Part shown: one piece after another, positions 11,708 through 32,873 of the stretch | Numbering within the stretch: position 1 is the stretch's first letter | How the letters are laid out: each line of letters opens with the position of its first letter | NCBI RefSeq assembly: GCF_056746865.1 | Contig: NZ_CM163382.1 | DNA: 64,000 bases | Strand: one strand, 5' to 3' | Translations under genes and position numbers: made by a program | The notes under the pieces: generated by a model | The model's input: the letters and a program-made list of their open reading frames with translations, nothing else | Database searches by the model: none | What the model was told of the DNA's origin: nothing

Positions 11708-11714
<7 letters not shown>

Positions 11715-12319: not shown

Positions 12320-12329
12320 GTTGCGGGGT

Positions 12330-12403: not shown

Positions 12404-12415
12404 AAACCGAAAAGA

Positions 12416-13541: not shown

Positions 13542-14717
<1,176 letters not shown>

Positions 14718-14898: not shown

Positions 14899-14931
14899 AA
14901 AAAAAAGCCCGGTGCAATATACGCCGGGCCT
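14899..14931 (-). terminator. Rho-independent terminator downstream of gnd
   Basis: On the minus strand: hairpin ggcccggcg...caccgggc followed by tttttttt, located just 3' of the gnd stop. Confidence 0.7.
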
Positions 14932-14956
14932 CAATTTTATTGTTGGTTAAATCAGA

Positions 14957-16363
14957 TTAATCCAGCCATTCAGTATGGAACACACCTTCTTTATCAATGC
15001 GCTTATAAGTATGCGCACCGAAATAGTCACGCTGTGCCTGGATCAGGTTCGCAGGCAGAACAGCGGCACGGTAGCTATCGTAATAGGCAACCGCAGCGGC
15101 GAAGGTCGGAACCGGGATACCGTTCTGTACTGCATATGCGACGACATCACGCAGCGCCTGCTGGTAGTCATCGGCAATTTGCTTGAAGTACGGAGCCAGC
15201 AGCAGGTTAGCGATCTGCGGATTTTCGGCATAAGCATCGGTGATTTTCTGCAGGAACTGCGCACGGATGATGCAGCCAGCACGGAAAATCTTCGCGATTT
15301 CGCCGTAGTTCAGAGCCCAGTTGTATTCTTCAGACGCAGCACGCAGCTGAGAGAAGCCCTGAGCGTAAGAAACGATTTTGCCAAGATACAGCGCACGGCG
15401 AACTTTTTCGATGAACTCAGCCTTGTCGCCTGCTGGCTGTCCTTGCGGGCCAGAGAGAACTTTAGATGCGGCAACACGCTGATCTTTCAGAGAAGAGATA
15501 TAACGTGCAAACACAGACTCGGTAATCAGCGACAGCGGTTCGCCGAGATCTAGCGCACTCTGGCTGGTCCATTTGCCTGTACCTTTGTTTGCTGCTTCAT
15601 CCAAAATCACATCAACCAGGTAGTTACCGTCTTCATCTTTTTTGGTGAAGATATCTTTGGTGATGTCGATCAGGTAGCTGCTTAGTTCACCGTTATTCCA
15701 CTCGGTAAAGGTCTGAGCCAGTTCTTCGTTGGTGAGGCTCAGGCCACCTTTAAGCAGTGAATAGGCTTCAGCAATCAGCTGCATATCGCCGTATTCAATA
15801 CCGTTATGAACCATCTTCACATAGTGACCAGCACCATCGGCACCAATATAGGTAACGCATGGCTCGCCGTCTTCAGCAACGGCGGCGATTTTGGTCAGGA
15901 TCGGCGCAACCAGTTCATAGGCTTCTTTCTGCCCACCAGGCATAATGGAAGGGCCTTTCAGCGCACCTTCTTCACCACCGGAAACACCGGTACCAATGAA
16001 GTTAAAGCCTTCGGCAGAAAGCTCGCGGTTACGACGAATGGTGTCCTGGAAGAAGGTATTACCACCATCAATGATGATGTCACCTTTATCGAGGTATGGC
16101 TTGAGGGAATCAATAGCAGCATCCGTGCCTGCACCTGCTTTCACCATTAACAGGATGCGACGAGGCGTTTCCAGAGATTCAACAAACTCTTTCACCGTAT
16201 AGTAAGGAACCAGTTTCTTGCCTGGATTTTCGGCAATCACTTCTTCCGTCTTTTCACGGGAACGGTTGAAAATAGAGACGGTATAACCACGGCTTTCGAT
16301 GTTGAGCGCAAGGTTGCGTCCCATCACTGCCATACCGACGACGCCGATCTGTTGCTTTGACAT
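14957..16363 (-). CDS. gnd: 6-phosphogluconate dehydrogenase (decarboxylating)
   Basis: 468 aa ORF ([30 protein letters not shown]...). Confidence 0.95.
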
Positions 16364-16474
16364 TGTTTACTCCTGTCAGGGGTGGTCACCGCGGGGTTGC
16401 GCGGCTTGAAGAAGCTAAGATGGTAACCCAGCATGTATAGAATAAGATAGAAGAATAAACGGTGGTATATCGCT

Positions 16475-16882
16475 TTATAACCACTTAGAAAAAGCCTTAG
16501 CTTTCAGTGGGTCAAATGGCCCCTCCTTTATCTCCAACATAAGGGCTTTTGGTGACAAGCATTTGACACTATGTATATCTCCTGGGGAAAATTCCACGAC
16601 GCTTATTCCCGTACCGTCTCCAACCACAAACTGTTTTTGGATCTCACCATTTTGCTCATACAAGCAAACTTCTAATTGCCCTTGCATGACGACAAACATT
16701 TCCCACTGATGCGGTAACTCATGCCAATGGGGTTCAACATAGCTGTCGCGGACAAATGCAATAAGTAAACGTTGAACCTTCTCCTGATGAGATGCGTGCA
16801 ATAAATAATGAGCGCGCAAACGTTCAGAATTTGCTGCAGTGCGAAAAAGTTCATCCAGAATATTGTCATCAACTAAACGCAT
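16475..16882 (-). CDS. wbuC: Small cupin-like protein of the type found at the end of fnl-containing O-antigen clusters (WbuC-like)
   Basis: 135 aa ORF immediately downstream of a WbuB-like glycosyltransferase with a 10-nt overlap; assignment is by size, position and resemblance, not a verified function. Confidence 0.6.
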   Translation of the reverse strand: MRLVDDNILDELFRTAANSERLRAHYLLHASHQEKVQRLLIAFVRDSYVEPHWHELPHQWEMFVVMQGQLEVCLYEQNGEIQKQFVVGDGTGISVVEFSPGDIHSVKCLSPKALMLEIKEGPFDPLKAKAFSKWL

Positions 16883-18081
16883 TCTCCTGCCTCCAGTCGG
16901 ACTTCGATAATATGTGCCGCCGATTCAACCGAAAATTGAGACTTTAACAACACATTAGCGTTCTGACCTAACTGCTTTCTTAAAGCTGAATCACTAAGAA
17001 GCAATTGTGCAGATTTAAACAGTTTATCATCTTCACCATTAACATGAATGAAACCGGCCCTGTGCTTATTAATTACATCCATTAAATCATTGCCGCCATT
17101 CACACTCCCAAGGATCGGGATTGATTGAACCATATACCCTAGTAATTTCCCAGGGAAATTATGTGAAGAATGGCGAGATGAAAGGGAGAACAGGCCGACA
17201 TCAACTTCAGATAAAATTAATTTAAACTCTTCCTGGTTCACTGAAGGTAGGTGAGTGAAATTAGTTAAATTCCATTCTGCAGCAAGAGATTTTATCAGGT
17301 CAACTTCATCACCCTGCCCTATAAACAGGAAATGAGCATCATGATAACGCATCATATTACGCGCAAGGCGCATTAAGTTCGCCATATCCTGAGCATGCCC
17401 AATATTACCGCCATAGAAAAAAATGACTTTATCTTTTAGATCGTATTTTTGACGAAGTGAATGATAATCATCGCTGGCAGACACAGGAGTCATTGAGGCC
17501 CAATTACGTAAAACTTCACACGGATAACCTTTATTGGTCTGACGAAATATCTCAAGATTCTTATCAGACATTACCCCTATCCGGTCAGCCTGCTGATATG
17601 ATTTTTTTTCAAAATACCTGAAATATTTTTCAATTGGCGAACCGGCTTTCAACATACCTGCATCAATGACCCACTGTGGAAACATATCCCTTAGGACCAG
17701 GTAGCTTGGGCACTGGCATCGCTGCTTTATTTTTTTAACCAAGTCGCCCCAAAAAATAGAGGGGGAATAATAAACGATACCATCAAATGTATCATGTTGA
17801 ATGAGGTGCTTAAATGCGCGCCATGCACGAAAAGATAAAAGAGTTTCATTTATGGCACGCTTAGCCTTACCTACATCCTTTAAAGGTCCACTTTTGAAAC
17901 GCCAAACCTTTATACCATCAATCATACTAACAGAATAGATTGCTTGTAATGTGATGTCAGGCGTAATTACAGTTACATCATGGCCTCTGCTCAACAATTC
18001 AAGGCCTAACTCATGAAACATTTTAGCCCCAACACGTGTGCTATGGGGCAAATAATCATCAATGATTAATGCAAGTTTCAT
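16873..18081 (-). CDS. wbuB: GT4-family glycosyltransferase, probable L-FucNAc transferase (WbuB-like)
   Basis: 402 aa ORF directly downstream of fnlABC; in known clusters this position holds the transferase that uses the UDP-L-FucNAc made by FnlABC. Confidence 0.7.
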   Translation of the reverse strand: MKLALIIDDYLPHSTRVGAKMFHELGLELLSRGHDVTVITPDITLQAIYSVSMIDGIKVWRFKSGPLKDVGKAKRAINETLLSFRAWRAFKHLIQHDTFDGIVYYSPSIFWGDLVKKIKQRCQCPSYLVLRDMFPQWVIDAGMLKAGSPIEKYFRYFEKKSYQQADRIGVMSDKNLEIFRQTNKGYPCEVLRNWASMTPVSASDDYHSLRQKYDLKDKVIFFYGGNIGHAQDMANLMRLARNMMRYHDAHFLFIGQGDEVDLIKSLAAEWNLTNFTHLPSVNQEEFKLILSEVDVGLFSLSSRHSSHNFPGKLLGYMVQSIPILGSVNGGNDLMDVINKHRAGFIHVNGEDDKLFKSAQLLLSDSALRKQLGQNANVLLKSQFSVESAAHIIEVRLEAGECV

Positions 18082-19211
18082 TAGTATTGTTTCCAGACAA
18101 CCCGTTTAACGTAGTCAGTATATGAATGGATAATACGCACAACTTTATCTGAAACATTGGGCATGCTATAGTCACTGACCTGACGAAGTAAGCGTACTTC
18201 TCCACGAGGCTGTGTTGCAATAATTTCTAATGCCTGTAAAACGCGCTCAGATTCAAGACCGACCATCATTACTGCCCCTTCTTCGAAGCCTTCCGGGCGT
18301 TCGTGCGCTTCTCGTATATTGAGTGCAGGGAAGTTCATAATGGAGGACTCTTCTGTAATAGTCCCACTATCCGATAAAACAGCACGTGCATTTTTTTGCA
18401 GATGGTTGTAATCGTGAAATCCTAATGGCTTAAGAAGCAAGATATTTTTATGGAATTGAATACCGTTTTCATTGATGCGGTTACGAGTGCGAGGATGAGT
18501 AGAAACAACTACCGGGACATCATATTTTTCAGCCACGGTATTAAGTATATTCGCCAGTTTCGCAAGCTGTTTAGGGGTATCAACATTTTCTTCTCTGTGG
18601 GCACTTACCACAAAGAAATTCCCAGGTGTTAAATTCAGGCGAGAAAGTACATCGGAACCATCAATCTGCGGCATATAATGAGTGAGTACTTCAAACATTG
18701 GGCTACCGGTTTTAATAATTCTATCGGCTGGTACACCTTCAGCCAGAAGATATTCACGAGCGATATCGCTATATGTCATATTGATATCAGCAGTGTGGTC
18801 AACTATTTTTCTGTTAGTTTCTTCCGGTACGCGTTGGTCAAAACAACGATTCCCCGCTTCCATATGGAAGATCGGAATTTTTCGACGCTTTGCTGGTATT
18901 GCTGAAATACAGGAGTTAGTATCGCCAAGAACTAACATAGCTTCTGGTTTTTCCTGTTCAAGGACATCATCAACTTTAATGATAACTTGTCCAATAGTCT
19001 CTGCTGCATTTTTACCTGCGGCATTAAGAAAATAATCTGGTTTGCGAACACCCAAATCTTTGAAAAAAACTTCATTCAATTCATAATCGTAGTTTTGGCC
19101 AGTATGAATAATAAGGTGGTCACAATATTCATCTAATTTTGCAAGGACACGCGAGAGTCGAATAATTTCTGGACGAGTCCCAACAACCGACATGACTTTC
19201 AATTTTTTCAC
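18081..19211 (-). CDS. fnlC: UDP-N-acetylglucosamine 2-epimerase (non-hydrolysing), FnlC/Cap5G-like
   Basis: 376 aa ORF ([29 protein letters not shown]...) of the WecB/Cap5G epimerase type; third gene of the UDP-L-FucNAc pathway. Confidence 0.85.
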
Positions 19212-20314
19212 GATAAAACTCTCGCTATAGTATCTGGTTCAGAACGATTAAATATTTCATTTGCCCAAAGCATAACAACTAGCTCATCCGAGCCATTATT
19301 AGTGATGTCATGCGTCCACCCCGGAACTGTTTCAACAATTTTAAAATCATCTGAGGAGACATTAAATTCATATCGCTCACCCGTGACAATATTTTCAAAT
19401 TTGAAACAAGCACTTCCTCGGATGACAATAAATTTCTCATTTTTGGAATGATGATAATGTCCCCCCCGAGTAATTCCTGGATGCGCAGTAAAGAACGAAA
19501 ACTGGCCCGCGTTTTTCGTTTTCAATACTTCACAGAATACCCCTCTATCATCACTATAAGAAGGAACCGTATACGCAAACTGTTCAGGAGACAGATAACT
19601 TAACCATGTTGAGTACAATGCACGTGTAAATCCATTACCTACATCTTCGGTGATTAATGTTTGGCGACTTTCTTTAAATCGGTAAATTAATTGCGCCACT
19701 TCACCAACAGTAACAGAATAAATTGGACCGAATGTCCTGTAACCAGTTTCGTTCGCTCCTTCCAATAGCTTTAATATGTCAGAACAAAAGTCATCTATAT
19801 ACACCAGATCAACAACTGCTGAAGGATCATTAATTGTAATAGTTTCATCATTTGCAATGCGATGGCAGAAAGTTGCTATAAAGGAGTTATAATTTGGGCG
19901 ACACCACTTACCGAATACATTCGGCAAGCGATAAATATAATATTTGGCATTTGTCGTTTCCCCATACTGCTGAATGATTTTCTCCGCAGTCGCTTTACTC
20001 TTTCCATAAGCGTTATCACATTCAGCCTGGATGGAAGAACTCAGCATGATAGGAGTATTTTTATTATTTTTTTTCAGAACATCAACAATCTGTTGAGTTA
20101 CGTTGCTATTTCCCTCTTCAAATTCACTCTCCTTCACAGGACGATTTACTCCTGCAAGGTGAAAAATGAAATCTGCCTGCTTAAGTCCCTGCTCTAAATC
20201 CGCCAAAGAAGAGTTACGATCTATCGTAATAAGTTCGTTATAACCAGCCTCCTTAAGGCGGAAAACCAAATTACGGCCGATAAACCCTGAAGCACCAGTA
20301 ACTAAAATTTTCAT
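19208..20314 (-). CDS. fnlB: UDP-L-FucNAc pathway reductase/epimerase, FnlB/Cap5F-like
   Basis: ORF with short-chain dehydrogenase N-terminus ([17 protein letters not shown]); start placed at the ATG at 20314, but 20332 or 20341 are also possible. Confidence 0.8.
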
Positions 20315-20315
20315 A

Positions 20316-21350
20316 TTATGAATCCAACTCATAATCTTCACCAGAACGAATTGCCCGGATAAAAGGAAGTTTTAGCAGTAATTTTTTCATACCCTCAACA
20401 TCTAATCTCTCAGTATTATGAGAGTTATAATCTTCCACTTCCGAGATACGACGGTCACCATGTTCCACATATTTACCATAGTTCAAATCGCGGAGATCTG
20501 GTGGAACACGATAATAATCACCCATATCTTCCGCTGCTATCATTTCCTCTCGGCTCAATAACGCTTCGTAAAGTTTTTCCCCGTGTCGAGTTCCAATAAT
20601 ATTGATTGGATGTTCATGGGCATTTAGCAATTCCTTAAGTGCAATGGCTAATGTTTGAATTGTTGCCGCAGGAGCTTTCTGAACGAAAATATCACCGTTA
20701 TTTCCATGCTCGAAGGCATAAAGGACCAGATCAACAGCATCCTCAAGCGTCATCATGAAACGAGTCATATTGGGATCGGTAATGGTCAATGGTTTACCAG
20801 ATTTGATTAGATCAACAAACAATGGGATGACCGATCCACGTGAAGCCATTACATTCCCATAACGTGTTCCGCAGATAACTGTTTTTGAACTATCAAGATT
20901 ACGTGATTTTGCAACAATGACTTTTTCCATCATTGCTTTAGATATGCCCATTGCATTAATAGGATATACGGCTTTATCTGTACTCAGACATACAATTCGC
21001 CTAACGCGATTAGCTATTGCAGCTTCTAGAACGTTTTCAGTACCTAAAATATTCGTTTTTACAGCTTCCATGGGGTGGAATTCGCAGGAAGGCACTTGCT
21101 TCAGGGCTGCAGCATGATAAATAAAATCAACACCTCGAGAAGCATTGAGAATACTCGAATAATCGCGAACATCACCTATATAGAACTTAAGCTTCTGATT
21201 ATTATATTTTTTCCTCATGTCATCTTGTTTTTTTTCATCCCGGGAAAAAATACGTATTTCTTTGATATCTGTATCAAGAAAACGTCTTAGAACAGCATTA
21301 CCGAAAGACCCCGTACCACCAGTAATTAACAATATTTTACCATTAAACAT
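20316..21350 (-). CDS. fnlA: UDP-GlcNAc 4,6-dehydratase/5-epimerase, FnlA/Cap5E-like
   Basis: Start trimmed to MFNGKILLITGGTGSFGNAVLRRFLD (ATG at 21350), 344 aa. Confidence 0.85.
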   Translation of the reverse strand: MFNGKILLITGGTGSFGNAVLRRFLDTDIKEIRIFSRDEKKQDDMRKKYNNQKLKFYIGDVRDYSSILNASRGVDFIYHAAALKQVPSCEFHPMEAVKTNILGTENVLEAAIANRVRRIVCLSTDKAVYPINAMGISKAMMEKVIVAKSRNLDSSKTVICGTRYGNVMASRGSVIPLFVDLIKSGKPLTITDPNMTRFMMTLEDAVDLVLYAFEHGNNGDIFVQKAPAATIQTLAIALKELLNAHEHPINIIGTRHGEKLYEALLSREEMIAAEDMGDYYRVPPDLRDLNYGKYVEHGDRRISEVEDYNSHNTERLDVEGMKKLLLKLPFIRAIRSGEDYELDS

Positions 21351-21358
21351 AATACACC

Positions 21359-22462
21359 TTATTTTAAAATAGAGAAGAACTGTGGCCAAGATGAACGACT
21401 ATCTTTTTCATAAGGCCTAAAATTGAGCTTCGAATTGCCATTTAAAACATTAAACAACGCCCTAGCCCAGCCATCTTCATCATTGTAAATTACAAAATCT
21501 ACGCCGCTATAATTCTTTAAAACATCACGGGCATAAGGAAGATCACTACTAATGATTTTTTTTCCTAAACTAGCAGCTTCGATGAGTGGTAACCCATATG
21601 ATTCTATATAGCTAGGAAAAACAATAAAAGATGCCGCCATATATTTTTTTTGCAATTTCGAGTATGAAAGAACACCGAGATAATCAATGTTTTTGCTTAG
21701 GTTATTTAATTGCACAAACTTATCAAAATTTTTGTACCTATTCTTTTCAAAAGTCACTTGGAATTTCAGATCATCTATAAAATACTTTTGCTTTAAAATA
21801 ACCAACGCCTTCAGAATGACCAAATGATTTTTATAGGTAAGTGGTGTCGCTGGATATAAGAGTGTTTTAACAGATACATCCTTATCTACATCAAATTTAG
21901 TATTATTAAATGTTTTGATATCAGGTTTTATAACAAGGACCCTTTCGGAACTAATCTTATCACATTGATCCAACACTCCTTTTTTCATCCAATTCGTTTG
22001 CACTACGATGGTTGTATTTGCATTCACATATTTAAATATAAAATAGGAATAAAAATTTTTATATAAAAAAAGTTTTACGTTATCGAACGTGATATCATTT
22101 AAAAAAGAATCAACTTTACTGAAAGGAATTGGCTGGTGCAAGTAAATAATCTGCTCATAAGGAACATTCAAACTGGAATTTTGTAGAGAAATTACTTTCT
22201 TAACGTTAATCTTATGTTCAGAGATAAACTTTCGACAACCGAACCAATCCCAATATATTCTTTTCAACCATCCTTTTGGTGTGTTTTCTATGTAAATGAT
22301 GTTATCACAGACCGGCAACTCTAATCCCGCAGATACAAACATAATATAGTCATTTGAATTTTGTGATGCATGTTTTATAAATTGCTTTAATATAGTTAAT
22401 GCACCTCCGGAGGCCAGCGCCGTCGCACTTACAACAATATAACTTTTGGACAAATCAAACAT
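21359..22462 (-). CDS. GT4-family glycosyltransferase of the O-antigen cluster
   Basis: 367 aa ORF with the C-terminal GT4 motif (FPSYIESYGLPLIEAASLGKKII); AT-rich codon usage like its neighbours. Confidence 0.7.
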   Translation of the reverse strand: MFDLSKSYIVVSATALASGGALTILKQFIKHASQNSNDYIMFVSAGLELPVCDNIIYIENTPKGWLKRIYWDWFGCRKFISEHKINVKKVISLQNSSLNVPYEQIIYLHQPIPFSKVDSFLNDITFDNVKLFLYKNFYSYFIFKYVNANTTIVVQTNWMKKGVLDQCDKISSERVLVIKPDIKTFNNTKFDVDKDVSVKTLLYPATPLTYKNHLVILKALVILKQKYFIDDLKFQVTFEKNRYKNFDKFVQLNNLSKNIDYLGVLSYSKLQKKYMAASFIVFPSYIESYGLPLIEAASLGKKIISSDLPYARDVLKNYSGVDFVIYNDEDGWARALFNVLNGNSKLNFRPYEKDSRSSWPQFFSILK

Positions 22463-22738
22463 ACAGTTCCTAAGTGGTTATCTAAAGCTTCTTATTAACA
22501 TAAATTTTCAACAAATGAAAACAGACAGAGCAAAGTACACTTCCATAGGAAGTTATCCGAATGAATGCAGGATATTATATACTACATAAGAAGCCATATC
22601 CTATCTTTCCCAAATCGAAACATTTTCTGTTCTTGCCCTCTTATTTCCAGACAGGGATTGTATCTTAAGTTAGATATATGTCCAAGCCTACCTCTTATTT
22701 TAAGATACATCTACTGTCTGGTGTTTTCGGGGGTCAAC

Positions 22739-23229
22739 TCAGATCACATTATTAAGAATCTCACCACACACAACACTATTTGCGCCAATAACTACACCAT
22801 TACCTATACACGCACCTGGTAATATTGTCACGTTTTCACCAATCCACACACGCTCTTCAATATACACAGGTGCAGATTCAAGAGACCTAGATGAAGGAAT
22901 AATAGTTGGTGAACTATGGATATCAGATTTAGAAAAAATACCATGATTATGATCACTAATAAATACTTTACTTGCTATTAATGTATCTCTACCAATAATG
23001 GCATTATTAATAGCCGCGATGTGGAACATAATCATTAATTTGAACATTTTCTCCAATAGACACTATAGCATCCATAAATGTATCACCTCCTAATACTACA
23101 CCTGATGTAAACCCTTTTCCAAAACTAACACTTCCATCTTTTCTAAGATAACATGAAAATCTAATAACCCTAACATTTGAACAAAATAAAACTTTTGTTA
23201 AGAATAATCTTTAAGAAGCCTAAGACCAC
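22739..23229 (-). pseudogene. Degraded hexapeptide-repeat acetyltransferase gene
   Basis: The only intact ORF (22739..23056) encodes hexapeptide-repeat sequence (HIAAINNAIIGRDTLIASKVFISDHNHG...IGENVTILPGACIGNGVVIGANSVV). The N-terminal part (...GKGFTSGVVLGGDTFMDAIVSIGENVQINDYV) lies upstream in a different frame, consistent with a 1-nt insertion near 23005, and has no in-frame start codon. Confidence 0.65.
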
Positions 23230-23332
23230 CATAAAGGCCATATCGTTTAATTAACTTAATTTTTTATGCACATTATTTATGCCCTGGTTAGAATATATGT
23301 TATTTACGTATTAATGATAACATAATCTACTA

Positions 23333-24562
23333 TTATATAGCCATTTTGACATTAGATTTCATCAAGATAATTTTAGCATGATATTTGCATAAAAATATTG
23401 ATGAAAATAACATAAACACATAGGGATTTATATAGCCAGCACCACGTATAAAAAGGGGGATGAAGAAACACATATAGAAACTATATGCTAAAATATACTG
23501 CGGTGGATATCTCTTATTTTTTTTGAAACGCAGATAAAATCGAAAAAAAATAAAAAGATAGAAAATGCACATTATTGCACCAATAAACCCAAACTCAGAT
23601 ATTAACTTCGAAGAAATAAATGAGCCATCGTATATATTTAACATAGGGGCATCAAGATCAGCTAAAATTTGTTGATACACTCCTACCTCCCCATTCACGC
23701 CCATTTGTTGAAAACCAATACCAAGACCATAACTTGTAATAAAATTCAAGAAAGCTCTTTCAATTCCTGAAAGATATACAAGCACTGATAAGTTCGTAGT
23801 ATTTTTAAAATCAAGCCGCGATGTATAGTAAGAAATGTCTAAATCACTTAATATCATGGAAAAAATCCATGCCCCTAAAAATATAACAATAGTTTGCCTT
23901 ATTGTTATTTTTTTCATCACAAAAACACTAATCACAATGCCTACTAACATCGTTAAGTTCTGGATACCTAACGCAATACCCAAAGATAATATATAGAGCA
24001 ATAGTACCCCCCCCCCCCTTGTATAGTATAAACAAAATGAAAAGATAGGTATGAAAACCAATGCAAATGCTGATGGTTCAGGAAAAAGAATCATACTTTT
24101 ATCATGTATAATCTCAGTTTTCTGTAAAAGAATACTTATAATGCCAATAAGGCAAAGAAATGCGAACAAATAAAAGACGGATCTCTTAAGTATTTCTTCA
24201 GAACATAACCACAAAGTCTGTGCATAACAAGAGGAGACGTATGCCATTATTAAGATGCTATACATTGAAAGTACAATTTTAAATGATAAAACCTGTTCAA
24301 TATTAAATAGCATACTTAACAGACAGTTAAAACACAACAATATGAATAATACTACTATTATTAGCAAATTATCTTTGCAAGTGTTTTTAGCCCTTAAAAA
24401 AACAAAAAGCAATATAATGGAGATTATCGTTGAAATGCTAAAATTATCAATCCCTAATGTATAAAACAAAAAATCAGGAAAAACAAGGAAAAGTAAAAAT
24501 AAAAATATAATTCTTTTTGTGCTATTTGGTTCTTCTATTCTTATGCTCATACATAATCTCAA
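23333..24562 (-). CDS. wzy: O-antigen polymerase
   Basis: 409 aa highly hydrophobic, AT-rich ORF with many predicted transmembrane segments, between glycosyltransferase genes; contains a G12 tract on the coding strand. Start uncertain (24562 or 24550). Confidence 0.7.
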   Translation of the reverse strand: MRLCMSIRIEEPNSTKRIIFLFLLFLVFPDFLFYTLGIDNFSISTIISIILLFVFLRAKNTCKDNLLIIVVLFILLCFNCLLSMLFNIEQVLSFKIVLSMYSILIMAYVSSCYAQTLWLCSEEILKRSVFYLFAFLCLIGIISILLQKTEIIHDKSMILFPEPSAFALVFIPIFSFCLYYTRGGGVLLLYILSLGIALGIQNLTMLVGIVISVFVMKKITIRQTIVIFLGAWIFSMILSDLDISYYTSRLDFKNTTNLSVLVYLSGIERAFLNFITSYGLGIGFQQMGVNGEVGVYQQILADLDAPMLNIYDGSFISSKLISEFGFIGAIMCIFYLFIFFRFYLRFKKNKRYPPQYILAYSFYMCFFIPLFIRGAGYINPYVFMLFSSIFLCKYHAKIILMKSNVKMAI

Positions 24563-25670
24563 TTATCTTTTTTGCCCAATTGTCCCAATGCAATATTTTA
24601 TTATATCTAACTCTTGCGTTTTGGGAGTAGTTTTGATAAGTCTCTACGGAGCTAATTATTTTATGAATTGCATTTCCAAAGTGCTTATAGTCTGACGAGT
24701 CTTTAATTAATATCCCCGTCCTTTCGTTGATAACTATAGAACTAATTCCACCTGTATCTGTGGCGACAACTGGCAATCCATAAGCTGCAGCTTCACAAAA
24801 TACCATTCCGTAACATTCAGCAATGGTTGGTAAAAGAAGTATATCAGCGTTAGATAACACATCGATGAATTTCTGATATTCTTCAACGTTATTTTTATTT
24901 ATTTTATCAATTAATTCAACCCAAGCAGGTAAAATCTCTTGATTCGGAGTACATCCACAAATTTTTAGTCTAACATCGATCCCATATAACTCTCTTACAT
25001 ATTCAATTGCTTTCAATGCTGTTTTACCACCTTTTCTTTCCCAATCGACCCCCAAGAAAAGACAAGTATAACTAATCTTTTGAATTATAGTTTTATTAGC
25101 AAAATGAATATCTTCAAATAAATTAGCCCCCCATGGTATTTCAACTAATTTATCAGAATCCAATCTGTAATAGTCCTTGCAAAAATCCATTGCCCATTTA
25201 GATGGGAAAGATACGACTGTTGCTTTTTCAATAGCCTTGCGTTCGATTAAACTTGCATCCTCATCATTTATAATTGTTTTTTTATTTAAATTCGGATAAT
25301 AGTTTTTTAATTGATCATATGTTGTATCCGATAGATATATTATTGGTATATTTGTTTCTAAAAAAGCAATTTGTGAAGAACCTGCAGGTGCAATAATAAA
25401 ATCCAAACCATCAATTTTTTTTAATTTTCTCTCAAATATTCTACCGTAATACTTGGAAAGCAACTTCGAACGACTATAATCATATTCCTTTCCGAAACAC
25501 CTTAATATTAATTTATATGCTTTTAACATGTATACCATATAGCTATTTACCGGTCCTAATATTTCAATGGAAATATTTCTCTTCGATAATGCCTTTAGCA
25601 TATAATAAGGTGTGCCAGACCAACTGGATGTAGATAGTGGATCATAAGCAGATAAAAAAGCCACTTTCAT
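24522..25670 (-). CDS. GT4-family glycosyltransferase of the O-antigen cluster
   Basis: 382 aa ORF with GT4 motif (LPTIAECYGMVFCEAAAYGLPVVATDTGGISSIV). Confidence 0.7.
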   Translation of the reverse strand: MKVAFLSAYDPLSTSSWSGTPYYMLKALSKRNISIEILGPVNSYMVYMLKAYKLILRCFGKEYDYSRSKLLSKYYGRIFERKLKKIDGLDFIIAPAGSSQIAFLETNIPIIYLSDTTYDQLKNYYPNLNKKTIINDEDASLIERKAIEKATVVSFPSKWAMDFCKDYYRLDSDKLVEIPWGANLFEDIHFANKTIIQKISYTCLFLGVDWERKGGKTALKAIEYVRELYGIDVRLKICGCTPNQEILPAWVELIDKINKNNVEEYQKFIDVLSNADILLLPTIAECYGMVFCEAAAYGLPVVATDTGGISSIVINERTGILIKDSSDYKHFGNAIHKIISSVETYQNYSQNARVRYNKILHWDNWAKKIIEIMYEHKNRRTK

Positions 25671-25736
25671 TAAATACCCTTTAATAACATATCAAACTAT
25701 ACATTTATTTAATAACACCATCATTAAATGCATATT

Positions 25737-26702
25737 CTAATGGCATTTGCTACCTTTATTTCGTTTGAAGTTAAACATAACATTCAAACATCTTTTCATC
25801 TTATTAAACTCACCTCTTCTAGCACGGTTAAATGCTACAACAAAGAGTGACAACCATACCGTCCAATAATATTGTGGATAAAACTTTTCTGTAATGACCA
25901 GCCTATTTTTTATTGAACAAAGGTCAGCTATCATACTCTTTCCCCCATCAGTACTTGCACCTATCTTATGATAAACCAAACTATCTGAGCAAATACCTAA
26001 TTTAAAGTTCTTTGCTTTTGCTCTGAGGCAAATATCTAACTCTTCATAGTATAAAAAATATTCTTCATTCATCAATCCAACTGTTTCCAAACATTCTCTA
26101 GAGAAAAACATTGATGCGCCAATTATATAATCTATATTATTGCTAATGACTTCATCATCATATTTTTTGGAAACTAATCTTCCCATCTCATAATTTTTTG
26201 TAGTGCATAACCATCTGTAATGTACCCCACCCAGTCCTTGCTGCATCTCTCTATCGGTAAAATAGACTAAACGAGAACCGCAAATCCCTATATTTTTATC
26301 TGAATCACATTTACTAATTAAATGAGTTAAAGCCTCTTTATCCACTTCAGTATCATTATTCAGAACCCAGACGTATTTCATATCCTCCTGATTAAGTGCG
26401 AGCTCTATTCCAATGTTATTACCACTTGCGTACCCATTATTTTTCGGAGATTGTATTAATATGATTTTATCGTTTTCTAATGTTTGATATTTACTTCTAT
26501 CCTCATACTTCACCTCAATGAAACTTTTACCAGTAATATATAATGCATTAAGATTTTCTTTTATAGAATCATATGAGTTATCCGTAGAACAGTTATCAAC
26601 AACGATAATTTTATAATCATCATAATTTAAATTCATTAAACTTTTAACACAATTAATGGTATCTATAGCCCCATTCCAATTTAACACTACAATATATATC
26701 AT
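25737..26702 (-). CDS. GT2-family glycosyltransferase, possibly a rhamnosyltransferase
   Basis: 321 aa ORF with GT2 N-terminus (MIYIVVLNWNGAIDTINCVKSL...VVDNCSTDNS); the sugar specificity is inferred only from the neighbouring rml genes. Confidence 0.7.
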   Translation of the reverse strand: MIYIVVLNWNGAIDTINCVKSLMNLNYDDYKIIVVDNCSTDNSYDSIKENLNALYITGKSFIEVKYEDRSKYQTLENDKIILIQSPKNNGYASGNNIGIELALNQEDMKYVWVLNNDTEVDKEALTHLISKCDSDKNIGICGSRLVYFTDREMQQGLGGVHYRWLCTTKNYEMGRLVSKKYDDEVISNNIDYIIGASMFFSRECLETVGLMNEEYFLYYEELDICLRAKAKNFKLGICSDSLVYHKIGASTDGGKSMIADLCSIKNRLVITEKFYPQYYWTVWLSLFVVAFNRARRGEFNKMKRCLNVMFNFKRNKGSKCH

Positions 26703-27979
26703 CAGGCTACCCTTTTTTTCATAAGATTATTACAACGATAACTCATATAAAAAAGCATCAAAAAATCAATTATCACTCGAATTGTCCATAACCACGCCAC
26801 ACCAATAACCCCACATTCCTTTGAAATTATATATAACATTATCAAATAAGGAATAAATTCCATCATATGGATGTATGCAGTGTATTTTGCTTTTCCAAAT
26901 GCCTGTATATTGGCAAAAGAGATTTGTGAATAACAGTTAAAGATATACCCTATAAGCATAATCCGTAATATTTCGACTGAAATCCCTGCATACTCAGCCC
27001 CCATCCACAATGTTAAAATAAACTTTGCGTAGTAATATATAAATAAAACCAAAGGCAATACAATGACAGTCATTAATATATACGCTTTTTTTTGTTCTGC
27101 ATATGACGCTGTAAAACTACTTGCATGGCTTAATTTTGGAAAAACAGCTTTCCCAAGAGAGCCTGGAACTATTCCAAGCCTAGTTACCAGCTCATTAGGG
27201 ACTGTATAGAATGATATTTTTGATGCTCCCTGGATATGAGATAGAATAAATCTATCCATACTCGCTAATATAGGAGATATTATGTTACTTATAGTTACCC
27301 ACCCGCCATATCTAAATAACCGTTTTAAAACAGTTATTGAAAAAAATGAAATATCGATAGTTATTCTTTTCCTGCTCATAATGTAGCTTAACCACAAGCA
27401 TATAACTCTTGCAATAGCTACACCAATAATTGCAGAAAAAAGTGTTTGATTAATTAAAACAAATAATGCAGGCAACCCTGCAATTAAAGAATTCCCTAAA
27501 CTTTTTTGTATATTTAGGATTCCAAAATATTCCCGCCCCTCAAGCTCTGCTAATAGTATTTGCGTGACTAAGAATACAGGTATCAGAGATGATAATAATA
27601 TTAGAGACTTTATCGCATCGACGTAGTATATTGGTGACATATTTAACAGTTCAATAATATGGTCTTTAAGCAGAAACACTCCCCCGCCTCCGATACCCCC
27701 TAAAAATACCACAGCAATAATAGAAGTTACTATTATCGTATTACAATCGTCCAGTCTGTTTTTTAGTAATGCTATTTCGCGTACTACAGCTCTTGTTAAC
27801 CCAGCATCAAATATACTAGCATACCCTATAAAAATCATTGATAAAGTATACAAACCAAATAGTTCTACACCAATTTCCCTTGCAATTAATCCAAACGCTG
27901 GGATTGCAATTAATGTTGGTATAAAGTAGCCCGCAACATTCCATATACTATGTTTTAAGAGAGACATTTCAATACTCAC
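26702..27979 (-). CDS. wzx: O-antigen flippase
   Basis: 425 aa polytopic membrane protein; its stop overlaps the downstream glycosyltransferase start (ATGA). Confidence 0.75.
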   Translation of the reverse strand: MSIEMSLLKHSIWNVAGYFIPTLIAIPAFGLIAREIGVELFGLYTLSMIFIGYASIFDAGLTRAVVREIALLKNRLDDCNTIIVTSIIAVVFLGGIGGGGVFLLKDHIIELLNMSPIYYVDAIKSLILLSSLIPVFLVTQILLAELEGREYFGILNIQKSLGNSLIAGLPALFVLINQTLFSAIIGVAIARVICLWLSYIMSRKRITIDISFFSITVLKRLFRYGGWVTISNIISPILASMDRFILSHIQGASKISFYTVPNELVTRLGIVPGSLGKAVFPKLSHASSFTASYAEQKKAYILMTVIVLPLVLFIYYYAKFILTLWMGAEYAGISVEILRIMLIGYIFNCYSQISFANIQAFGKAKYTAYIHMMEFIPYLIMLYIISKECGVIGVAWLWTIRVIIDFLMLFYMSYRCNNLMKKRVA

Positions 27980-28511
27980 TTAGTTCTAATTTTTCCCCAT
28001 TTGCATCCTTATCAGACAGAGTAATCAGTGCTGTCCTTGGCCATTTAATATTAAGCAAGGGGTCATTCCAGATAATATTTCGTTCATGTGATGGAGCATA
28101 ATATTGATTCGTTTTATATAAAACTTCTGCTAAATCACTAAGTACCAAAAATCCATGAGCAAATCCTTCAGGTATCCACAACTGACGCTTGTTCTCAGCA
28201 GACAAATTCACCCCAACCCATTTCCCAAATGTACCTGACGATTTACGAATATCAACTGCTACATCAAAAACCTCACCGACCACACAACGAACTAATTTAC
28301 CTTGAGCATAAGGTTCCAGCTGATAGTGCAATCCGCGTAATACACCCTTAATTGATTTAGAATGGTTATCCTGAACAAATTCAACCTTACGCCCTACAGC
28401 CTCTTCGAAAACTTTCTGATTAAAGCTTTCCATAAAAAAACCGCGCTCATCACCAAAAACTTCCGGTTCCAAAATTAATACATCAGGAATTTCAGTTTTA
28501 ATTACATTCAT
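27969..28511 (-). CDS. rmlC: dTDP-4-dehydrorhamnose 3,5-epimerase
   Basis: 180 aa ORF (MNVIKTEIPDVLILEPEVFGDERGFFMESF...). Confidence 0.9.
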   Translation of the reverse strand: MNVIKTEIPDVLILEPEVFGDERGFFMESFNQKVFEEAVGRKVEFVQDNHSKSIKGVLRGLHYQLEPYAQGKLVRCVVGEVFDVAVDIRKSSGTFGKWVGVNLSAENKRQLWIPEGFAHGFLVLSDLAEVLYKTNQYYAPSHERNIIWNDPLLNIKWPRTALITLSDKDANGEKLELSEY

Positions 28512-28513
28512 TT

Positions 28514-29392
28514 TTAGTAACCTTTAATCATTTTTAGCAGATACTGACCATAAGCATTTTTCTTTAGTGGTTCTGCTAATACATTAACCTGCTCAGCGTC
28601 AATAAAGCCTTTACGATAAGCAATTTCTTCCGGGCAAGATACCTTTAAACCTTGTCGCTCTTCAATTGTTGCAATGAAGTTACTTGCTTCAATCAGACTT
28701 TGATGTGTCCCCGTGTCTAACCATGCATAACCACGGCCCATCATGGCAACAGATAAACGCCCCTGTTCCATATAGACACGGTTAATATCGGTAATTTCCA
28801 GTTCACCACGGGCAGAAGGCTTAAGGTTTTTCGCCATTTCCACAACGTCGTTATCATAGAAATAAAGCCCGGTTACCGCATAATTACTTTTTGGTTGTAA
28901 CGGTTTTTCTTCCAAGCTGATTGCAGTACCGTTTTTATCAAACTCAACGACACCATAGCGTTCAGGATCATTTACGTGATAGGCAAATACCGTTGCACCA
29001 CTTTCTTTGTTAACAGCGGCATCCATTAACCTCGGCAGATCGTGACCGTAAAAGATATTATCACCAAGAATCAAAGCACAATCATCACCACCAATAAACT
29101 CTTCACCGATAATAAATGCCTGCGCAAGCCCATCTGGAGTCAGTTGCACTTTGTACTGAAGATTTAGCCCCCACTGGCTACCGTCACCCAGCAGTTGTTG
29201 AAAACGAGGAGTATCCTGTGGCGTACTAATAATCAAAATATCGCGAATACCCGCCAACATCAGTGTAGAGAGCGGGTAATAGATCATCGGTTTATCATAA
29301 ATCGGTAATAGCTGTTTACTGACTGCCATAGTCACAGGATAAAGACGAGTACCAGAACCACCCGCTAAAATAATACCCTTACGCGTTTTCAT
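28514..29392 (-). CDS. rmlA: Glucose-1-phosphate thymidylyltransferase
   Basis: 292 aa ORF ([40 protein letters not shown]...). Confidence 0.95.
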
Positions 29393-29449
29393 TTCATCAT
29401 TCCTTTTAATTCATCTTGCTCCATCATCACGAACAAGATGCAAAAACTA

Positions 29450-30349
29450 TTAAATTGCTGTAGTCGTAAATAATTCGTTGAGCATGCGTTTCACACCAAC
29501 CTGCCAGTCAGGCAAGACAAGCGCAAAATTCTGCCGAAATTTTTCTGTATTAAGTCGAGAGTTATGTGGACGACAAGCTGGTGTAGGATAGGCTGTCGTT
29601 GGTACCGCATTGAGTTTGTTGAGTGCGAGGGGAATATCTGCTTTGCGCGCCTCTTCAAAAACCAGCGCAGCATAATCGTACCAGGTCGTGGTACCACTGG
29701 CTACCAGATGGTACAAGCCTGCGACATCCGGTTTATTCAGTGCGACACGAATGGCATGTGCTGTACAATCGGCCAGAAGCTCAGCACCCGTTGGTGCGCC
29801 AAATTGATCGTTTATCACAGCCAACTCTTCGCGTTCTTTTGCCAGACGCAACATCGTTTTGGCAAAATTATTTCCTTTACCAGCGTATACCCAGCTGGTA
29901 CGGAAAATAAGATGCTTTGCGCAATGTTCTTGTAACGCTTTTTCCCCAGCTAGCTTAGTTTCACCGTAAACATTTAGCGGCGCTGTTGCATCCGTTTCCA
30001 GCCATGGCCTGTCACCACTGCCAGGGAAAACATAATCGGTGGAGTAGTGTATAACCCAAGCTCCAACTTCATTTGCTGCTTTCGCAATCGCTTCGACACT
30101 TGTTGCGTTAAGTAATTGTGCAAACTCCGGTTCTGATTCTGCTTTGTCTACTGCGGTGTGAGCGGCTGCGTTGACAATAATATCAGGCCGAATGCTTCTT
30201 ACGGTTTCAGCTACACCTTCAGGATTACTAAAATCACCACAGTAATCAGTGGAGTGAACATCAAGAGCAATCAAATTACCCAAAGGTGCCAGAGCACGCT
30301 GTAGTTCCCAACCTACCTGCCCTGTTTTGCCGAATAGGAGGATATTCAT
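29450..30349 (-). CDS. rmlD: dTDP-4-dehydrorhamnose reductase
   Basis: 299 aa ORF ([30 protein letters not shown]...). Confidence 0.95.
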   Translation of the reverse strand: MNILLFGKTGQVGWELQRALAPLGNLIALDVHSTDYCGDFSNPEGVAETVRSIRPDIIVNAAAHTAVDKAESEPEFAQLLNATSVEAIAKAANEVGAWVIHYSTDYVFPGSGDRPWLETDATAPLNVYGETKLAGEKALQEHCAKHLIFRTSWVYAGKGNNFAKTMLRLAKEREELAVINDQFGAPTGAELLADCTAHAIRVALNKPDVAGLYHLVASGTTTWYDYAALVFEEARKADIPLALNKLNAVPTTAYPTPACRPHNSRLNTEKFRQNFALVLPDWQVGVKRMLNELFTTTAI

Positions 30350-31434
30350 TACTGGCGGCCCTCATAGTTCTGTTCAATCCACGATTGATAGGCGCCACTT
30401 TTCACATTATCAACCCATTTTGTATTGGACAGGTACCATTCCACCGTCTTTCGAATCCCGCTCTCAAACGTTTCTTGCGGTTTCCAGCCCAATTCACGGC
30501 TAATTTTATCGGCATCGATCGCATAACGGCGATCATGCCCTGGGCGATCAGCAACATAAGTAATTTGCTCACGATAAGATTTCTCTTTCGGTACAATCTC
30601 ATCCAGCAAATTACAAATAGTGAGCACTACATCAATGTTTTTCTTTTCGTTGTGCCCACCAATGTTATAAGTTTCACCCGCTTTACCTTCGGTTACGACG
30701 GTATATAATGCACGCGCATGATCTTCAACATACAGCCAATCACGAATTTGATCCCCTTTGCCATAAATAGGTAATGCCTTACCTTCCAGAGCATTAAGAA
30801 TTACTAGTGGAATCAATTTTTCCGGAAAGTGATAAGGACCGTAGTTATTCGAACAGTTAGTCACAATGGTCGGTAAACCATAGGTACGTTTCCACGCGCG
30901 GACTAAATGATCGCTGGATGCTTTGGATGCGGAATAAGGGCTGCTTGGTGCGTAAGCTGTTGTCTCAATAAATAAGGGTAATTTTTCTTTATTATTTACT
31001 TCGTCAGGATGAGGCAAATCACCATAGACTTCGTCAGTAGAAATATGATGAAAACGGAAGCTATTTTTCTTGTCGCTATCAAGAGCAGACCAGTAATTGC
31101 GAGCAGCTTCCAAAAGGACATAAGTACCAACAATATTGGTTTCAATAAATGCCGCAGGGCCTGTAATTGAACGGTCAACATGGCTTTCAGCAGCCAGGTG
31201 CATCACTGCATCCGGCTGATGCTGAGAAAAAATTCGCGCCATTGCAGCAGCATCGCAAATATCCGCATGTTCAAAAACATAGCGTTCAGAATCAGAAACA
31301 TCAGCAAGTGATTCCAGGTTTCCGGCGTACGTTAATTTATCGACATTAACAACACTATCCTGCGTATTATTTATAATGTGACGAACTATAGCAGAACCAA
31401 TAAATCCTGCGCCACCAGTAACAAGTATCTTCAC
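30349..31434 (-). CDS. rmlB: dTDP-glucose 4,6-dehydratase
   Basis: 361 aa ORF ([39 protein letters not shown]...); first gene of the O-antigen cluster. Confidence 0.95.
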
Positions 31435-31508
31435 TTATTTATTCCATATAACTTCAGAGCATGCTGTGAAATAAGCGGCTCTTAGGTTGATTAATAGAGG
31501 TGTTAATG

Positions 31509-31548
31509 CACGCTACCGCCCCTGGCTTTACAGCTACCAGAGCACTAC
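31509..31548 (-). promoter_or_regulatory. JUMPstart element with ops site upstream of the O-antigen cluster
   Basis: Plus strand reads cacgctaccgcccctggctttacagctaccagagcactac; its reverse complement contains GGCGGTAGCGTG, the ops motif, oriented with the minus-strand rmlB operon. Confidence 0.85.
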
Positions 31549-31805
31549 ATGCATGTCTACGATGTGACGAGCGTTACCCACTCGCGCTAAACCCGAAAAA
31601 TTCAAACGCTAATTGTCTTACCAATCCGCTCTGGAAACAAGGAAAATCCTGGAAAACTTTGACTAAAATCCTATTGCTAAGTCGTTGTTATTCTGATTGT
31701 TTATATAAAACAACGGCAGGAAAATTCGCAACAAATTACTTTCGCCGCTAATCTTCACTGCCGTTATAATTTTCTTATCAACCGTTACATCCGGTCAGAT
31801 TTTCA

Positions 31806-32699
31806 TTATTCGCTTAACAGCTTCTCAATCCCTTTACGGAACTTCGCCCCTTCTTTGAGGTTGCGTAGTCCATACTTCACGAACGCTTGCATATAACCCA
31901 TTTTTTTACCGCAGTCGTAGCTGTCGCCGGTCATCAGCATGGCATCAACGGACTGTTTTTTCGCCAGTTCGGCAATGGCATCAGTCAGCTGAATACGTCC
32001 CCATGCACCAGGCTGAGTGCGTTCCAGTTCCGGCCAAATATCGGCAGAAAGCACATAGCGACCAACGGCCATGATGTCTGAGTCCAGCGTCTGCGGCTGA
32101 TCCGGTTTTTCGATGAATTCAACAATGCGGCTGACTTTACCTTCGCGGTCCAGCGGCTCTTTGGTCTGGATGACAGAGTATTCAGAGAGGTCACCCGGCA
32201 TACGTTTTGCCAGCACCTGGCTGCGGCCCGTTTCGTTGAAGCGCGCAATCATGGCAGCAAGGTTGTAGCGCAGCGGGTCGGCGCTGGCGTCGTCGATCAC
32301 AACGTCTGGCAGCACCACGACAAATGGATTGTCACCAATGGCAGGTCGTGCACATAAAATGGAGTGGCCCAAACCTAAAGGTTCGCCCTGACGCACGTTC
32401 ATAATTGTCACGCCCGGCGGGCAAATGGACTGTACTTCCGCCAGCAGTTGACGCTTCACGCGCTGTTCAAGGAGAGATTCTAATTCATAAGAGGTGTCGA
32501 AGTGGTTTTCGACCGCGTTCTTGGAAGCGTGAGTTACCAGGAGGATTTCTTTGATCCCTGCAGCCACAATCTCGTCAACGATGTACTGAATCATTGGCTT
32601 GTCGACGATCGGTAGCATCTCTTTGGGAATCGCCTTAGTGGCAGGCAACATATGCATCCCAAGACCCGCTACAGGAATAACTGCTTTTAAATTCGTCAT
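31806..32699 (-). CDS. galF: UTP-glucose-1-phosphate uridylyltransferase paralogue
   Basis: Start trimmed to [39 protein letters not shown] (ATG at 32699), 297 aa. Confidence 0.9.
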
Positions 32700-32873
32700 T
32701 ATTTCATCCACCTGTAAAATGGTTGCTGAATTATAGCTTGTTCGATTTTTTTCGCCAGCATCAATTACCCTGAATTGATTACTGAATTACTTGTGATGTT
32801 ACGCCGCTTCGTTGTGGATTGCAGTAGCATTGTTCCTAAGTATGGCTCCATTTTTCCAGGAATGGTCGCAAAT

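Follow-up and report, generated by a model that had tools for sequence, protein, structure and literature searches.

An Escherichia coli O25a O-antigen gene cluster with a mosaic structure joined at an IS3-family remnant

The analyzed window, 64,000 nucleotides of contig NZ_CM163382.1, very probably carries between gnd and galF the O-antigen genes of E. coli O25 in its O25a subtype, the classical FucNAc-containing form. The cluster appears intact and is predicted to act through the Wzx/Wzy-dependent pathway. The O25a cluster, its genes, and the structure of its antigen are already known and published. Judged by homology, the cluster is a hybrid, in which the part from rmlB to a wbbJ remnant seems to come from an O25b-like cluster and the part from wbuH to wbuC from an O4-like cluster.

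Gene content and composition of the locus

The locus occupies positions 16475-31434 on the minus strand (Table 1), with wzzB, ugd, and the his operon on its left and the colanic acid cluster on its right. As in an O25a cluster, the genes lie between galF and gnd and follow a JUMPstart/ops leader. According to the ORF listing, 14 full-length minus-strand ORFs and one decayed gene fill the interval. An earlier note, made from the sequence of this DNA, had described a 15-gene cluster at the gnd-galF O-antigen hotspot; the location and the 14 genes named there are confirmed, whereas the fifteenth ORF turns out to be a wbbJ pseudogene.

Table 1 Coordinates of the cluster genes, junction features, leader elements, and flanking genes in the window.
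Feature	Position	Strand	Description	Match or remark
gnd	14957-16363	-		Flank of cluster
wbuC	16475-16882	-	Cupin-fold protein, 135 aa	TIGR04366, 154 bits
wbuB	16873-18081	-	GT4 L-FucNAc transferase, 402 aa	GT4 model matches
fnlC	18081-19211	-	wecB-type UDP-sugar 2-epimerase, 376 aa	TIGR00236, 235 bits
fnlB (wbjC)	19208-20314	-	UDP-2-acetamido-2,6-dideoxy-beta-L-arabino-hexul-4-ose reductase, 368 aa	NF047837, 542 bits (cutoff 500)
fnlA	20316-21350	-	UDP-GlcNAc 4,6-dehydratase/5-epimerase, 344 aa, intact	TIGR04130, 767 bits (cutoff 730)
wbuH-type gene	21359-22462	-	GT4 glycosyltransferase, 367 aa	Pfam Glycos_transf_1, E = 2.6e-15
3' end of O4-type wzy	22575-22627	-	Last ~18 codons and stop	Homology to O4 cluster L005
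IS3-family element	22628-22741	-	114 bp, internally deleted, both termini (TG...CA)	At junction of the two modules
wbbJ pseudogene	22742-23278	-	O-acetyltransferase remnant	Surviving 105-aa ORF at 22739-23056
wzy	23333-24550	-	O25-type O-antigen polymerase, uninterrupted 405-aa ORF	RefSeq 'O25 family O-antigen polymerase'
wekB	24522-25670	-	GT4 glycosyltransferase, 382 aa	GT4 model matches
wekA	25737-26702	-	GT2 glycosyltransferase, 321 aa	TIGR01556, 73 bits (below cutoff); PgaC; WcaA
wzx	26702-27967	-	O25-type O-unit flippase, 421 aa	Pfam Polysacc_synt, E = 4e-20
rmlC (rfbC)	27969-28511	-	dTDP-4-dehydrorhamnose 3,5-epimerase, 180 aa	TIGR01221, 280 bits
rmlA (rfbA)	28514-29392	-	Glucose-1-phosphate thymidylyltransferase, 292 aa	NF012024, 669 bits
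rmlD (rfbD)	29450-30349	-	dTDP-4-dehydrorhamnose reductase, 299 aa	NF007440, 648 bits
rmlB (rfbB)	30349-31434	-	dTDP-glucose 4,6-dehydratase, 361 aa	NF007490, 794 bits (cutoff 649)
JUMPstart element	31509-31547	-	Leader upstream of rmlB	Rfam RF01707, 56.8 bits (gathering score 35)
ops site GGCGGTAGCGT	31510-31520	-	Inside JUMPstart	Exact match
galF	31806-32711	-		Flank of cluster

The GC content of the cluster is 0.368, as against 0.503-0.536 in 15-kb windows outside it (n = 96 sampled, all 96 within this range). It amounts to 0.30-0.33 in the central genes wbuH, wzy, wekB, wekA, and wzx, 0.39-0.41 in the fnl genes, and 0.37-0.47 in the rml genes. At third codon positions, the cluster genes have a GC content of 0.25-0.40, compared with 0.52-0.70 in the his, gnd, galF, and colanic acid genes. 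The windowed measurement that the earlier note had proposed thus bears out its claim that the cluster is more AT-rich than its flanks.

The products of rmlB, rmlD, rmlA, and rmlC all score above their own curated cutoffs, as do the pathway enzymes as a whole; rfbB is the RefSeq name of the matching gene in the closely related record L001. RefSeq labels an identical wzx as 'O25 family O-antigen flippase'. The model that WekA matches below cutoff, TIGR01556, is a rhamnosyltransferase model, and the name wekA follows Table 3 of PMC3789825. The EC958 orthologue of WekB is 93% identical to that of E47a (PMC3789825). In the profile search, the wzy product has no Pfam or NCBIfam match, as is usual for Wzy; its hydropathy profile shows ~10 hydrophobic segments, none of them at residues 234-315. 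A MOP-family flippase (Polysacc_synt) together with a multi-spanning polymerase points to the Wzx/Wzy pathway. ABC transporter genes (wzm/wzt) are absent among the cluster ORFs, every one of which is accounted for. The profile matches and the RefSeq wzy label therefore agree with the gene content that the earlier note had read, namely the dTDP-L-Rha and UDP-L-FucNAc pathways, WbuB and three further transferases (one GT2 and two GT4), Wzx, Wzy, and WbuC.

Assignment to O25a

Over the serogroup-specific segment 21300-28000, where RefSeq names the genes O25 family wzx and wzy, the window matches ABU 83972 and the O25:H1 strain CU39ES-1 at 100% identity and O25:H16 F5505-C1 and ATCC 43886 at 99.9%, so that wzx and wzy match O25:H1-labelled genomes at 100% and O25:H16-labelled genomes at 99.9%. 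ABU 83972, of serotype O25:H1:K5 (PMC8281228), differs over the cluster region by two SNPs and one indel and nothing more. The O25 reference strain E47a carries fnlABC, wekA, wekB, wzx, and wzy (PMC3789825), and the same set is found here. The O25a identity is accordingly proposed from O25-labelled complete genomes and the published gene list (PMC3789825).

The subtype is indicated by fnlABC and wbuB, which lie downstream of wzy here; fnlABC is present in E47a and absent from EC958 (PMC3789825). The earlier note had named O25, O4, and O26 as look-alikes and assigned no serogroup; O25 was the right one among them, and the subtype follows from wzx/wzy combined with fnl-wbuB. Its proposed check, a match of wzx and wzy, does return O25 but is ambiguous, because the wzx/wzy genes of the FucNAc-free O25b are ~95% identical and a match gives "O25" for both subtypes. 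Among 5,426 complete E. coli genomes, 34 carry the O25a cluster at an identity of at least 99%, and ~426 carry O25b (~94% match), a set separate from the 34.

Intactness of the cluster

The cluster might alternatively be an O25 locus in decay that no longer functions (rough), a state that its nearest relative ABU 83972 may share. RefSeq flags both fnlA and wzy of ABU 83972 as frameshifted, strain 83972 was presumably typed O-rough historically, and pseudogene debris lies between 22463 and 23332 inside the present cluster. However, the 1-nt fnlA deletion of ABU 83972 does not occur in the window, where FnlA is full length, and in the assessment of this alternative all 14 genes were counted as covering their family profiles end to end. 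The wzy flag is found in every O25 genome examined, including those of ST131, a clone that is a major O25b antigen producer. Since the 405-aa ORF is uninterrupted both here and in the ST131 O25b locus (L004), and equals the EC958 Wzy in length (405 aa; PMC3789825), we judge the flag to be an annotation artefact. A decayed locus thus appears unlikely, and an intact O25a cluster is preferred.

The junction between the two modules

Between wzy and the wbuH-type gene lies a scar composed of a wbbJ remnant, an IS3-family element, and the end of a foreign wzy. Alignment of the remnant with the intact 606-nt wbbJ of O25b reveals three indels and a lost 3' end: 5 nt are deleted right behind the ATG, 1 nt is deleted near 23206, 1 nt is inserted near 23024, and the final 69 nt are missing. 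The surviving ORF could be taken for a working small O-acetyltransferase, since RefSeq annotates a 102-aa 'O-acetyltransferase' (WP_014639634.1) at this place and several hexapeptide repeats are kept. We regard this reading as very improbable. The ORF covers only positions 78-172 of the 192 in the WbbJ profile NF007240, its score of 126 bits falls short of the cutoff (243), it ends with a stop codon that the IS terminus provides, and the portion upstream of it is broken by the three indels. The annotation of ATCC 43886 treats the wbbJ region as an incomplete pseudogene, and O25A carries no O-acetyl group (PMC8260533). A dead wbbJ, which we prefer, fits this absence.

Within the IS3-family element, 22669-22741 corresponds to the left end and 22628-22672 to the right end of a full-length 1336-bp copy in locus L007, and the element also matches L006. 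It contains an internal inverted repeat with arms at 22647-22668 and 22700-22721. Its termini adjoin both module breakpoints exactly, and its flanks show no target-site duplication. On the other side, gap-free homology with the O4 cluster L005 runs from gnd to the wzy tail and covers the annotated end of the O4 wzy (...RKCFDLGKIGYGFLCSI, followed by the stop codon). The same scar is present in the O25a loci L001-L003 and in two records with at least 99% identity and full coverage among the matches listed.

Distinction from O25b and O4

The locus could also be read as the O25b cluster of pandemic ST131, in which Rha2Ac replaces FucNAc in the O unit. The wzx-wzy segment is ~95% identical to the ST131 loci, and typing by wzx/wzy alone yields O25 for either subtype. 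The homology to O25b, which amounts to 92.6% identity over 22742-32800, nevertheless ends at 22742. The intact wbbJ and the two downstream glycosyltransferases of O25b are missing; wbbJ is truncated and frameshifted, and wbuH, fnlABC, wbuB, and wbuC occupy the place of the O25b genes. With the 34 genomes at an identity of at least 99% distinct from the ~426 O25b genomes at ~94%, the chance of an O25b identity is close to nil, and it is refuted by the presence of fnlABC-wbuB. An identity as an O4 or O26-type cluster, two types that likewise carry FucNAc genes, is just as implausible and is refuted by the O25-type wzx and wzy: although the 3' 6.2 kb (wbuC-wbuH) is 95.9% identical to O4 loci and wbuC-fnlA ~94.5% identical to a large genome group presumed O26-type from strain names, the wzx, GT2, and wzy of O4 have no counterpart here except the 50-odd-nt wzy tail.

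Predicted repeat unit and pathway

The O25A repeat unit is composed of Glc, GlcNAc, FucNAc, and Rha, the alpha-FucNAc being 3-linked (PMC8260533). Production of this pentasaccharide (Glc2, Rha, FucNAc, GlcNAc) is predicted for the cluster, and the four transferases and the dead wbbJ are consistent with it. The pentasaccharide built on GlcNAc with L-FucNAc and L-Rha that the earlier note had foreseen agrees with the published unit (PMC8260533).

In the proposed pathway, RmlBDAC would make dTDP-L-rhamnose, and FnlABC would convert UDP-GlcNAc to UDP-L-FucNAc. WecA, encoded elsewhere, would start the unit by placing GlcNAc-P on undecaprenyl phosphate. WbuB would then add alpha-L-FucNAc to O3 of GlcNAc, in line with the reported linkage alpha-L-FucNAc-(1->3)-D-GlcNAc (PMC7685785). 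The WbuH-type GT4 may add alpha-D-Glc to O3 of FucNAc, the linkage assignment of the O4 WbuH being that of Table 3 in PMC3789825. WekA (GT2) and WekB (GT4) would attach the L-Rha and Glc side branches to the central Glc, probably one each. The pentasaccharide would be flipped by Wzx and polymerised by Wzy, with the chain length set by the neighbouring WzzB. The operon is presumably transcribed from a promoter upstream of JUMPstart/ops and, by analogy with similar operons, may depend on RfaH. Gene identities, intact ORFs, and near-identity to named O25 strains are read from the sequence, and the sugars and structure of O25A are taken from the literature; the assignment of linkages to transferases and expression of the antigen in the strain are inferred. 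Expression also requires wecA, waaL, and rfaH, all located outside the window.

Hybrid origin

Since the 5' half is ~93-95% identical to ST131 O25b and the 3' half ~96% identical to O4, the cluster appears to be a hybrid, the two modules of which would have been joined at the 114-bp IS3-family element. Region 14901-22632 aligns with the O4 locus at 95.9% identity with no gaps. The wbuH-type gene shares ~96% nucleotide identity with its O4 counterpart, and wbuB ~98% with the O4 gene and ~94.5% with the presumed O26-type gene; in the genome comparison, the complete 3' module including wbuH is common to O4 only. The earlier note had taken the AT-rich region for horizontally acquired DNA; the AT-richness holds, but the region is a two-part mosaic and not one uniform acquired block.

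The break of wbbJ at the IS terminus, the deleted element lacking a target duplication, and the O4 wzy tail suggest recombination through a shared IS between an O25b-like and an O4-like cluster. Each parental cluster would have carried a copy of the same IS, and the event would have exchanged the backbone sugar Rha2Ac for FucNAc while retaining flippase and polymerase. O25a is therefore, in our estimate, somewhat likely to be a derived form and not the ancestor of ST131 O25b. No statement of this polarity was found in the literature searched; one may stand in closed-access O-antigen papers or GenBank annotation.

Implications

O25a is a known and fairly rare serogroup variant, and the present locus matters little beyond correct annotation. 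Typing by wzx/wzy alone does not separate O25a from the vaccine-relevant O25b; for that, either the fnl-wbuB module or the junction scar serves. Loss of the O antigen should not be concluded from the 'frameshifted' flag that RefSeq puts on wzy in O25 genomes. If the hybrid origin holds, it would represent a module swap that alters one backbone sugar with Wzx and Wzy kept, which bears on the substrate tolerance of these two proteins.

Comparison with known O-antigen clusters

In gene order and content, the locus is alike to the E. coli O25a cluster of E47a (GU014554), ABU 83972, and ATCC 43886, from which essentially nothing differs. In ABU 83972, fnlA is frameshifted by the 1-nt deletion, unlike the intact fnlA here, and two SNPs are seen besides. 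The O4 cluster (strain MS 16-3, L005) shares wbuH-fnlABC-wbuB-wbuC, the intergenic region, and the wzy tail without gaps at 95.9%, whereas its wzx, GT2, and wzy are unrelated to the genes here. The O4 and O25a antigens have a common alpha-Glc-(1->3)-alpha-L-FucNAc-(1->3)-GlcNAc backbone. The O25b cluster (ST131; for example EC958 and Ecol_AZ161) has homologues of rmlBDAC, wzx, wekA, wekB, wzy, and the 5' 537 nt of wbbJ, with identities of ~93-97% for the central genes and 85-94% for the rml genes. In O25b, unlike in O25a, wbbJ is intact, two additional glycosyltransferase genes lie next to gnd, and fnlABC, wbuB, and wbuC are lacking. The two repeat units have the same branched Glc core, and Rha2Ac in O25b takes the position of the FucNAc of O25a (PMC8260533).

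Assignment of the cluster to serogroup O25a

The region between gnd and galF is filled by end-to-end minus-strand open reading frames (ORFs), 14 of which are full-length. The earlier note had counted 15 genes in this AT-rich cluster; 14 of them stand, and the fifteenth is only a 105-aa fragment within an 870-bp gap that separates wzy from a glycosyltransferase gene and is otherwise non-coding. When GC content was calculated in sliding 15-kb windows, the drop that the note had described was clearly present, with 0.368 in the cluster compared to 0.503-0.536 in all 96 other windows sampled outside it, and values down to 0.30-0.33 in the central genes. GC at the third codon position is 0.25-0.40 in the cluster and 0.52-0.70 in the his, gnd, galF, and colanic acid genes.

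The serogroup-specific part (21300-28000) was searched by megablast against 5,426 complete E. coli genomes, of which 34 match at ≥99% identity with full coverage. This part is 100% identical in ABU 83972, an O25:H1:K5 strain of ST73 (PMC8281228), and in the O25:H1 strain CU39ES-1, and 99.9% identical in the O25:H16 strain F5505-C1 and ATCC 43886. RefSeq labels in the matching genomes read "O25 family O-antigen flippase" and "polymerase". In gene content, the cluster agrees fully with the published description of the O25 reference strain E47a, in which fnlABC is present, while fnlABC is absent from the ST131 O25b strain EC958 (PMC3789825). Since the genome identities, the O25 gene names, and the E47a-like gene set with fnlABC agree, the cluster is, judged from its sequence, serogroup O25, subtype O25a. 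The cluster itself is already known, and the interpretation of the earlier note, which left the serogroup unassigned, is supported and completed by this assignment.

Features of the window and assignment of the cluster genes
Feature	Position	Strand	Evidence or remark
sRNA STnc240	2303-2377	-	Rfam score above gathering
His operon leader	5116-5239	+	Rfam score above gathering
gnd	14957-16363		Brackets the cluster
O-antigen cluster	16475-31434	-	
Glycosyltransferase gene	21359-22462		
Gap	22463-23332		
IS3-family remnant	22628-22741		114 bp, internally deleted
ORF no. 15	22739-23056		
wzy	23333-24550		
galF	31806-32711		Brackets the cluster
JUMPstart of the cluster	75-113 nt 5' of rmlB		Exact ops site; Rfam RF01707, 56.8 bits
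algC RNA motif	41153-41202	-	Within colanic acid region; Rfam score above gathering
Second JUMPstart	55679-55717	-	Head of colanic acid operon, upstream of wza; Rfam, above gathering score
Third ops-like match	56267-56277	-	GGCGGTAGTTT; no JUMPstart call
RmlB, RmlD, RmlA, RmlC			NCBIfam, each exceeds curated cutoff
Wzx			MOP/Polysacc_synt family
WekA			GT2
WekB			GT4
WbuH type			Third glycosyltransferase; Glycos_transf_1 domain
FnlA			TIGR04130, 767 bits
FnlB			NF047837, 542 bits
FnlC			wecB-type epimerase, 235 bits
WbuB type			GT4
WbuC			TIGR04366, 154 bits

Gene content and sugar chain

NCBIfam and Pfam searches reproduced the gene list of the note. Wzy gave no family match in either search, which is uninformative since Wzy proteins are too divergent. 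The identity of this 405-aa protein, for which hydropathy predicts about 10 hydrophobic segments, rests on that profile and on near-identity to named O25 genes.

The predicted pentasaccharide with L-FucNAc and L-Rha is borne out by the published chemistry of O25A, whose sugars are Glc, GlcNAc, FucNAc, and Rha (PMC8260533). Four transferases beyond WecA and one pathway each for FucNAc and Rha fit this chemistry. In the O25A repeat unit, 3-linked α-FucNAc replaces the 3-linked α-Rha2Ac of the O25B pentasaccharide, for which linkage analysis gave terminal Rha, 3-linked Rha, terminal Glc, 3,4,6-linked Glc, and 3-linked GlcNAc (PMC8260533). The α-L-FucNAc-(1->3)-GlcNAc linkage is the product of WbuB (PMC7685785), and α-Glc-(1->3)-FucNAc is assigned to the WbuH-type enzyme by analogy with O4 (PMC3789825 Table 3). 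Rha and the branch Glc would be added by WekA and WekB, any pairing of enzyme and sugar being putative.

Regulatory elements

The third ops-like match, about 0.6 kb upstream of the colanic acid JUMPstart and overlapping a plus-strand ORF, is probably a chance match. In the cluster, neither sigma-70 promoter-like sites (63 compared to 58.8 ± 8 in shuffled sequence) nor terminator-like sites (6 compared to 10.1) were in excess.

Functionality of wzy and fnlA

RefSeq/PGAP tags wzy as 'frameshifted' in all O25a and O25b genomes examined (L001-L004). Since an uninterrupted 405-aa wzy ORF is present in both the window and the ST131 locus, and the alignment of the EC958 Wzy (405 aa) to the E47a Wzy spans only 346 residues (Phan et al., PMC3789825), the flag is probably caused by the short reference protein (E47a ADI43263, 354 aa), which would end in another frame past the T9/A8 runs near 23520-23550.

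While fnlA is intact in the window, the asymptomatic-bacteriuria strain ABU 83972 carries a 1-nt deletion in this gene (window position 21245), which would abolish UDP-L-FucNAc synthesis there. ABU 83972 was historically typed as O-rough, and the deletion may explain such a phenotype. In the window strain, each of the 14 genes spans the whole of its profile, and smooth O25a lipopolysaccharide would be expected.

Lineage of the cluster

The window is not ABU 83972 itself, as 150 mismatches over 28.7 kb, mostly in hisA-gnd, and the intact fnlA rule this out. The two differ at 147 positions from hisA to gnd (10297-16000) and at just 8 more from about 16 kb to 39 kb (3 within the cluster and 5 to its right). 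This uneven spread points to a recombination breakpoint within gnd or close to it, and to the O25a cluster having moved laterally from lineage to lineage along with the first part of the colanic acid region. The his-gnd flank of the window is a 100% match to strains HCM-24C-3, F11 (CP184143), and EcE.ESBL.COL.

Junction between O25b-like and O4-like halves

Three remnants lie between the 5' module (rmlB to wbbJ) and the 3' module (wbuH to wbuC). The first is the acetyltransferase gene wbbJ, which is 606 nt long and intact in O25b. Relative to that copy, wbbJ in the window lacks 5 nt directly behind the start codon as well as the last 69 nt, and it also carries two single-nucleotide indels, one a deletion and the other an insertion. 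Of the 192 positions in the WbbJ profile, the ORF that is left spans just 78-172. A non-functional wbbJ is in keeping with the lack of an O-acetyl group in O25A (PMC8260533). The second is the IS3-family remnant, located exactly between the two halves. Its own halves match opposite ends of a complete 1336-bp element from other E. coli loci, and its TG...CA termini are kept and directly adjoin both breakpoints; no target-site duplication was found at its flanks. The 1336-bp copies and other fragments are present in many E. coli genomes, at up to 26 places per genome. The third consists of the final 50-odd nucleotides of an O4-type wzy.

Since each of the three remnants is a non-functional piece of a gene that other clusters carry intact, we lean toward O25a being the derived arrangement, in which an O4-like 3' module was joined to an O25b-like 5' module. 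As the IS remnant has chimeric flanks, the junction may have arisen when two IS copies recombined, with an internal deletion afterwards. Our literature search, which extended to sources other than the per-serogroup anomaly tables of PMC7685785, found no statement on the evolutionary direction between O25a and O25b, and we claim no novelty for a hybrid origin. The scar is a neat yet minor piece of molecular archaeology.

The two halves resemble different known loci. Window positions 22742-32800 align with the ST131 O25b locus at 92.6%, the central genes being about 93-97% identical and the rml genes lower, and positions 14901-22632 align with the O4 locus of strain MS 16-3 at 95.9% with zero gaps. 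Identity falls locally to 85% against O4 in fnlA (20401-20900) and to 85-87% against O25b in parts of rmlA, rmlD, and rmlB (28242-28741 and 29742-31741), which points to additional, smaller tracts of recombination inside the modules that are shared. A larger group of genomes has wbuC-fnlA alone in common with the window (about 94.5%), while the complete 3' module including wbuH is common only to O25a (34 genomes) and O4-type loci (about 36 genomes, about 95.9%).
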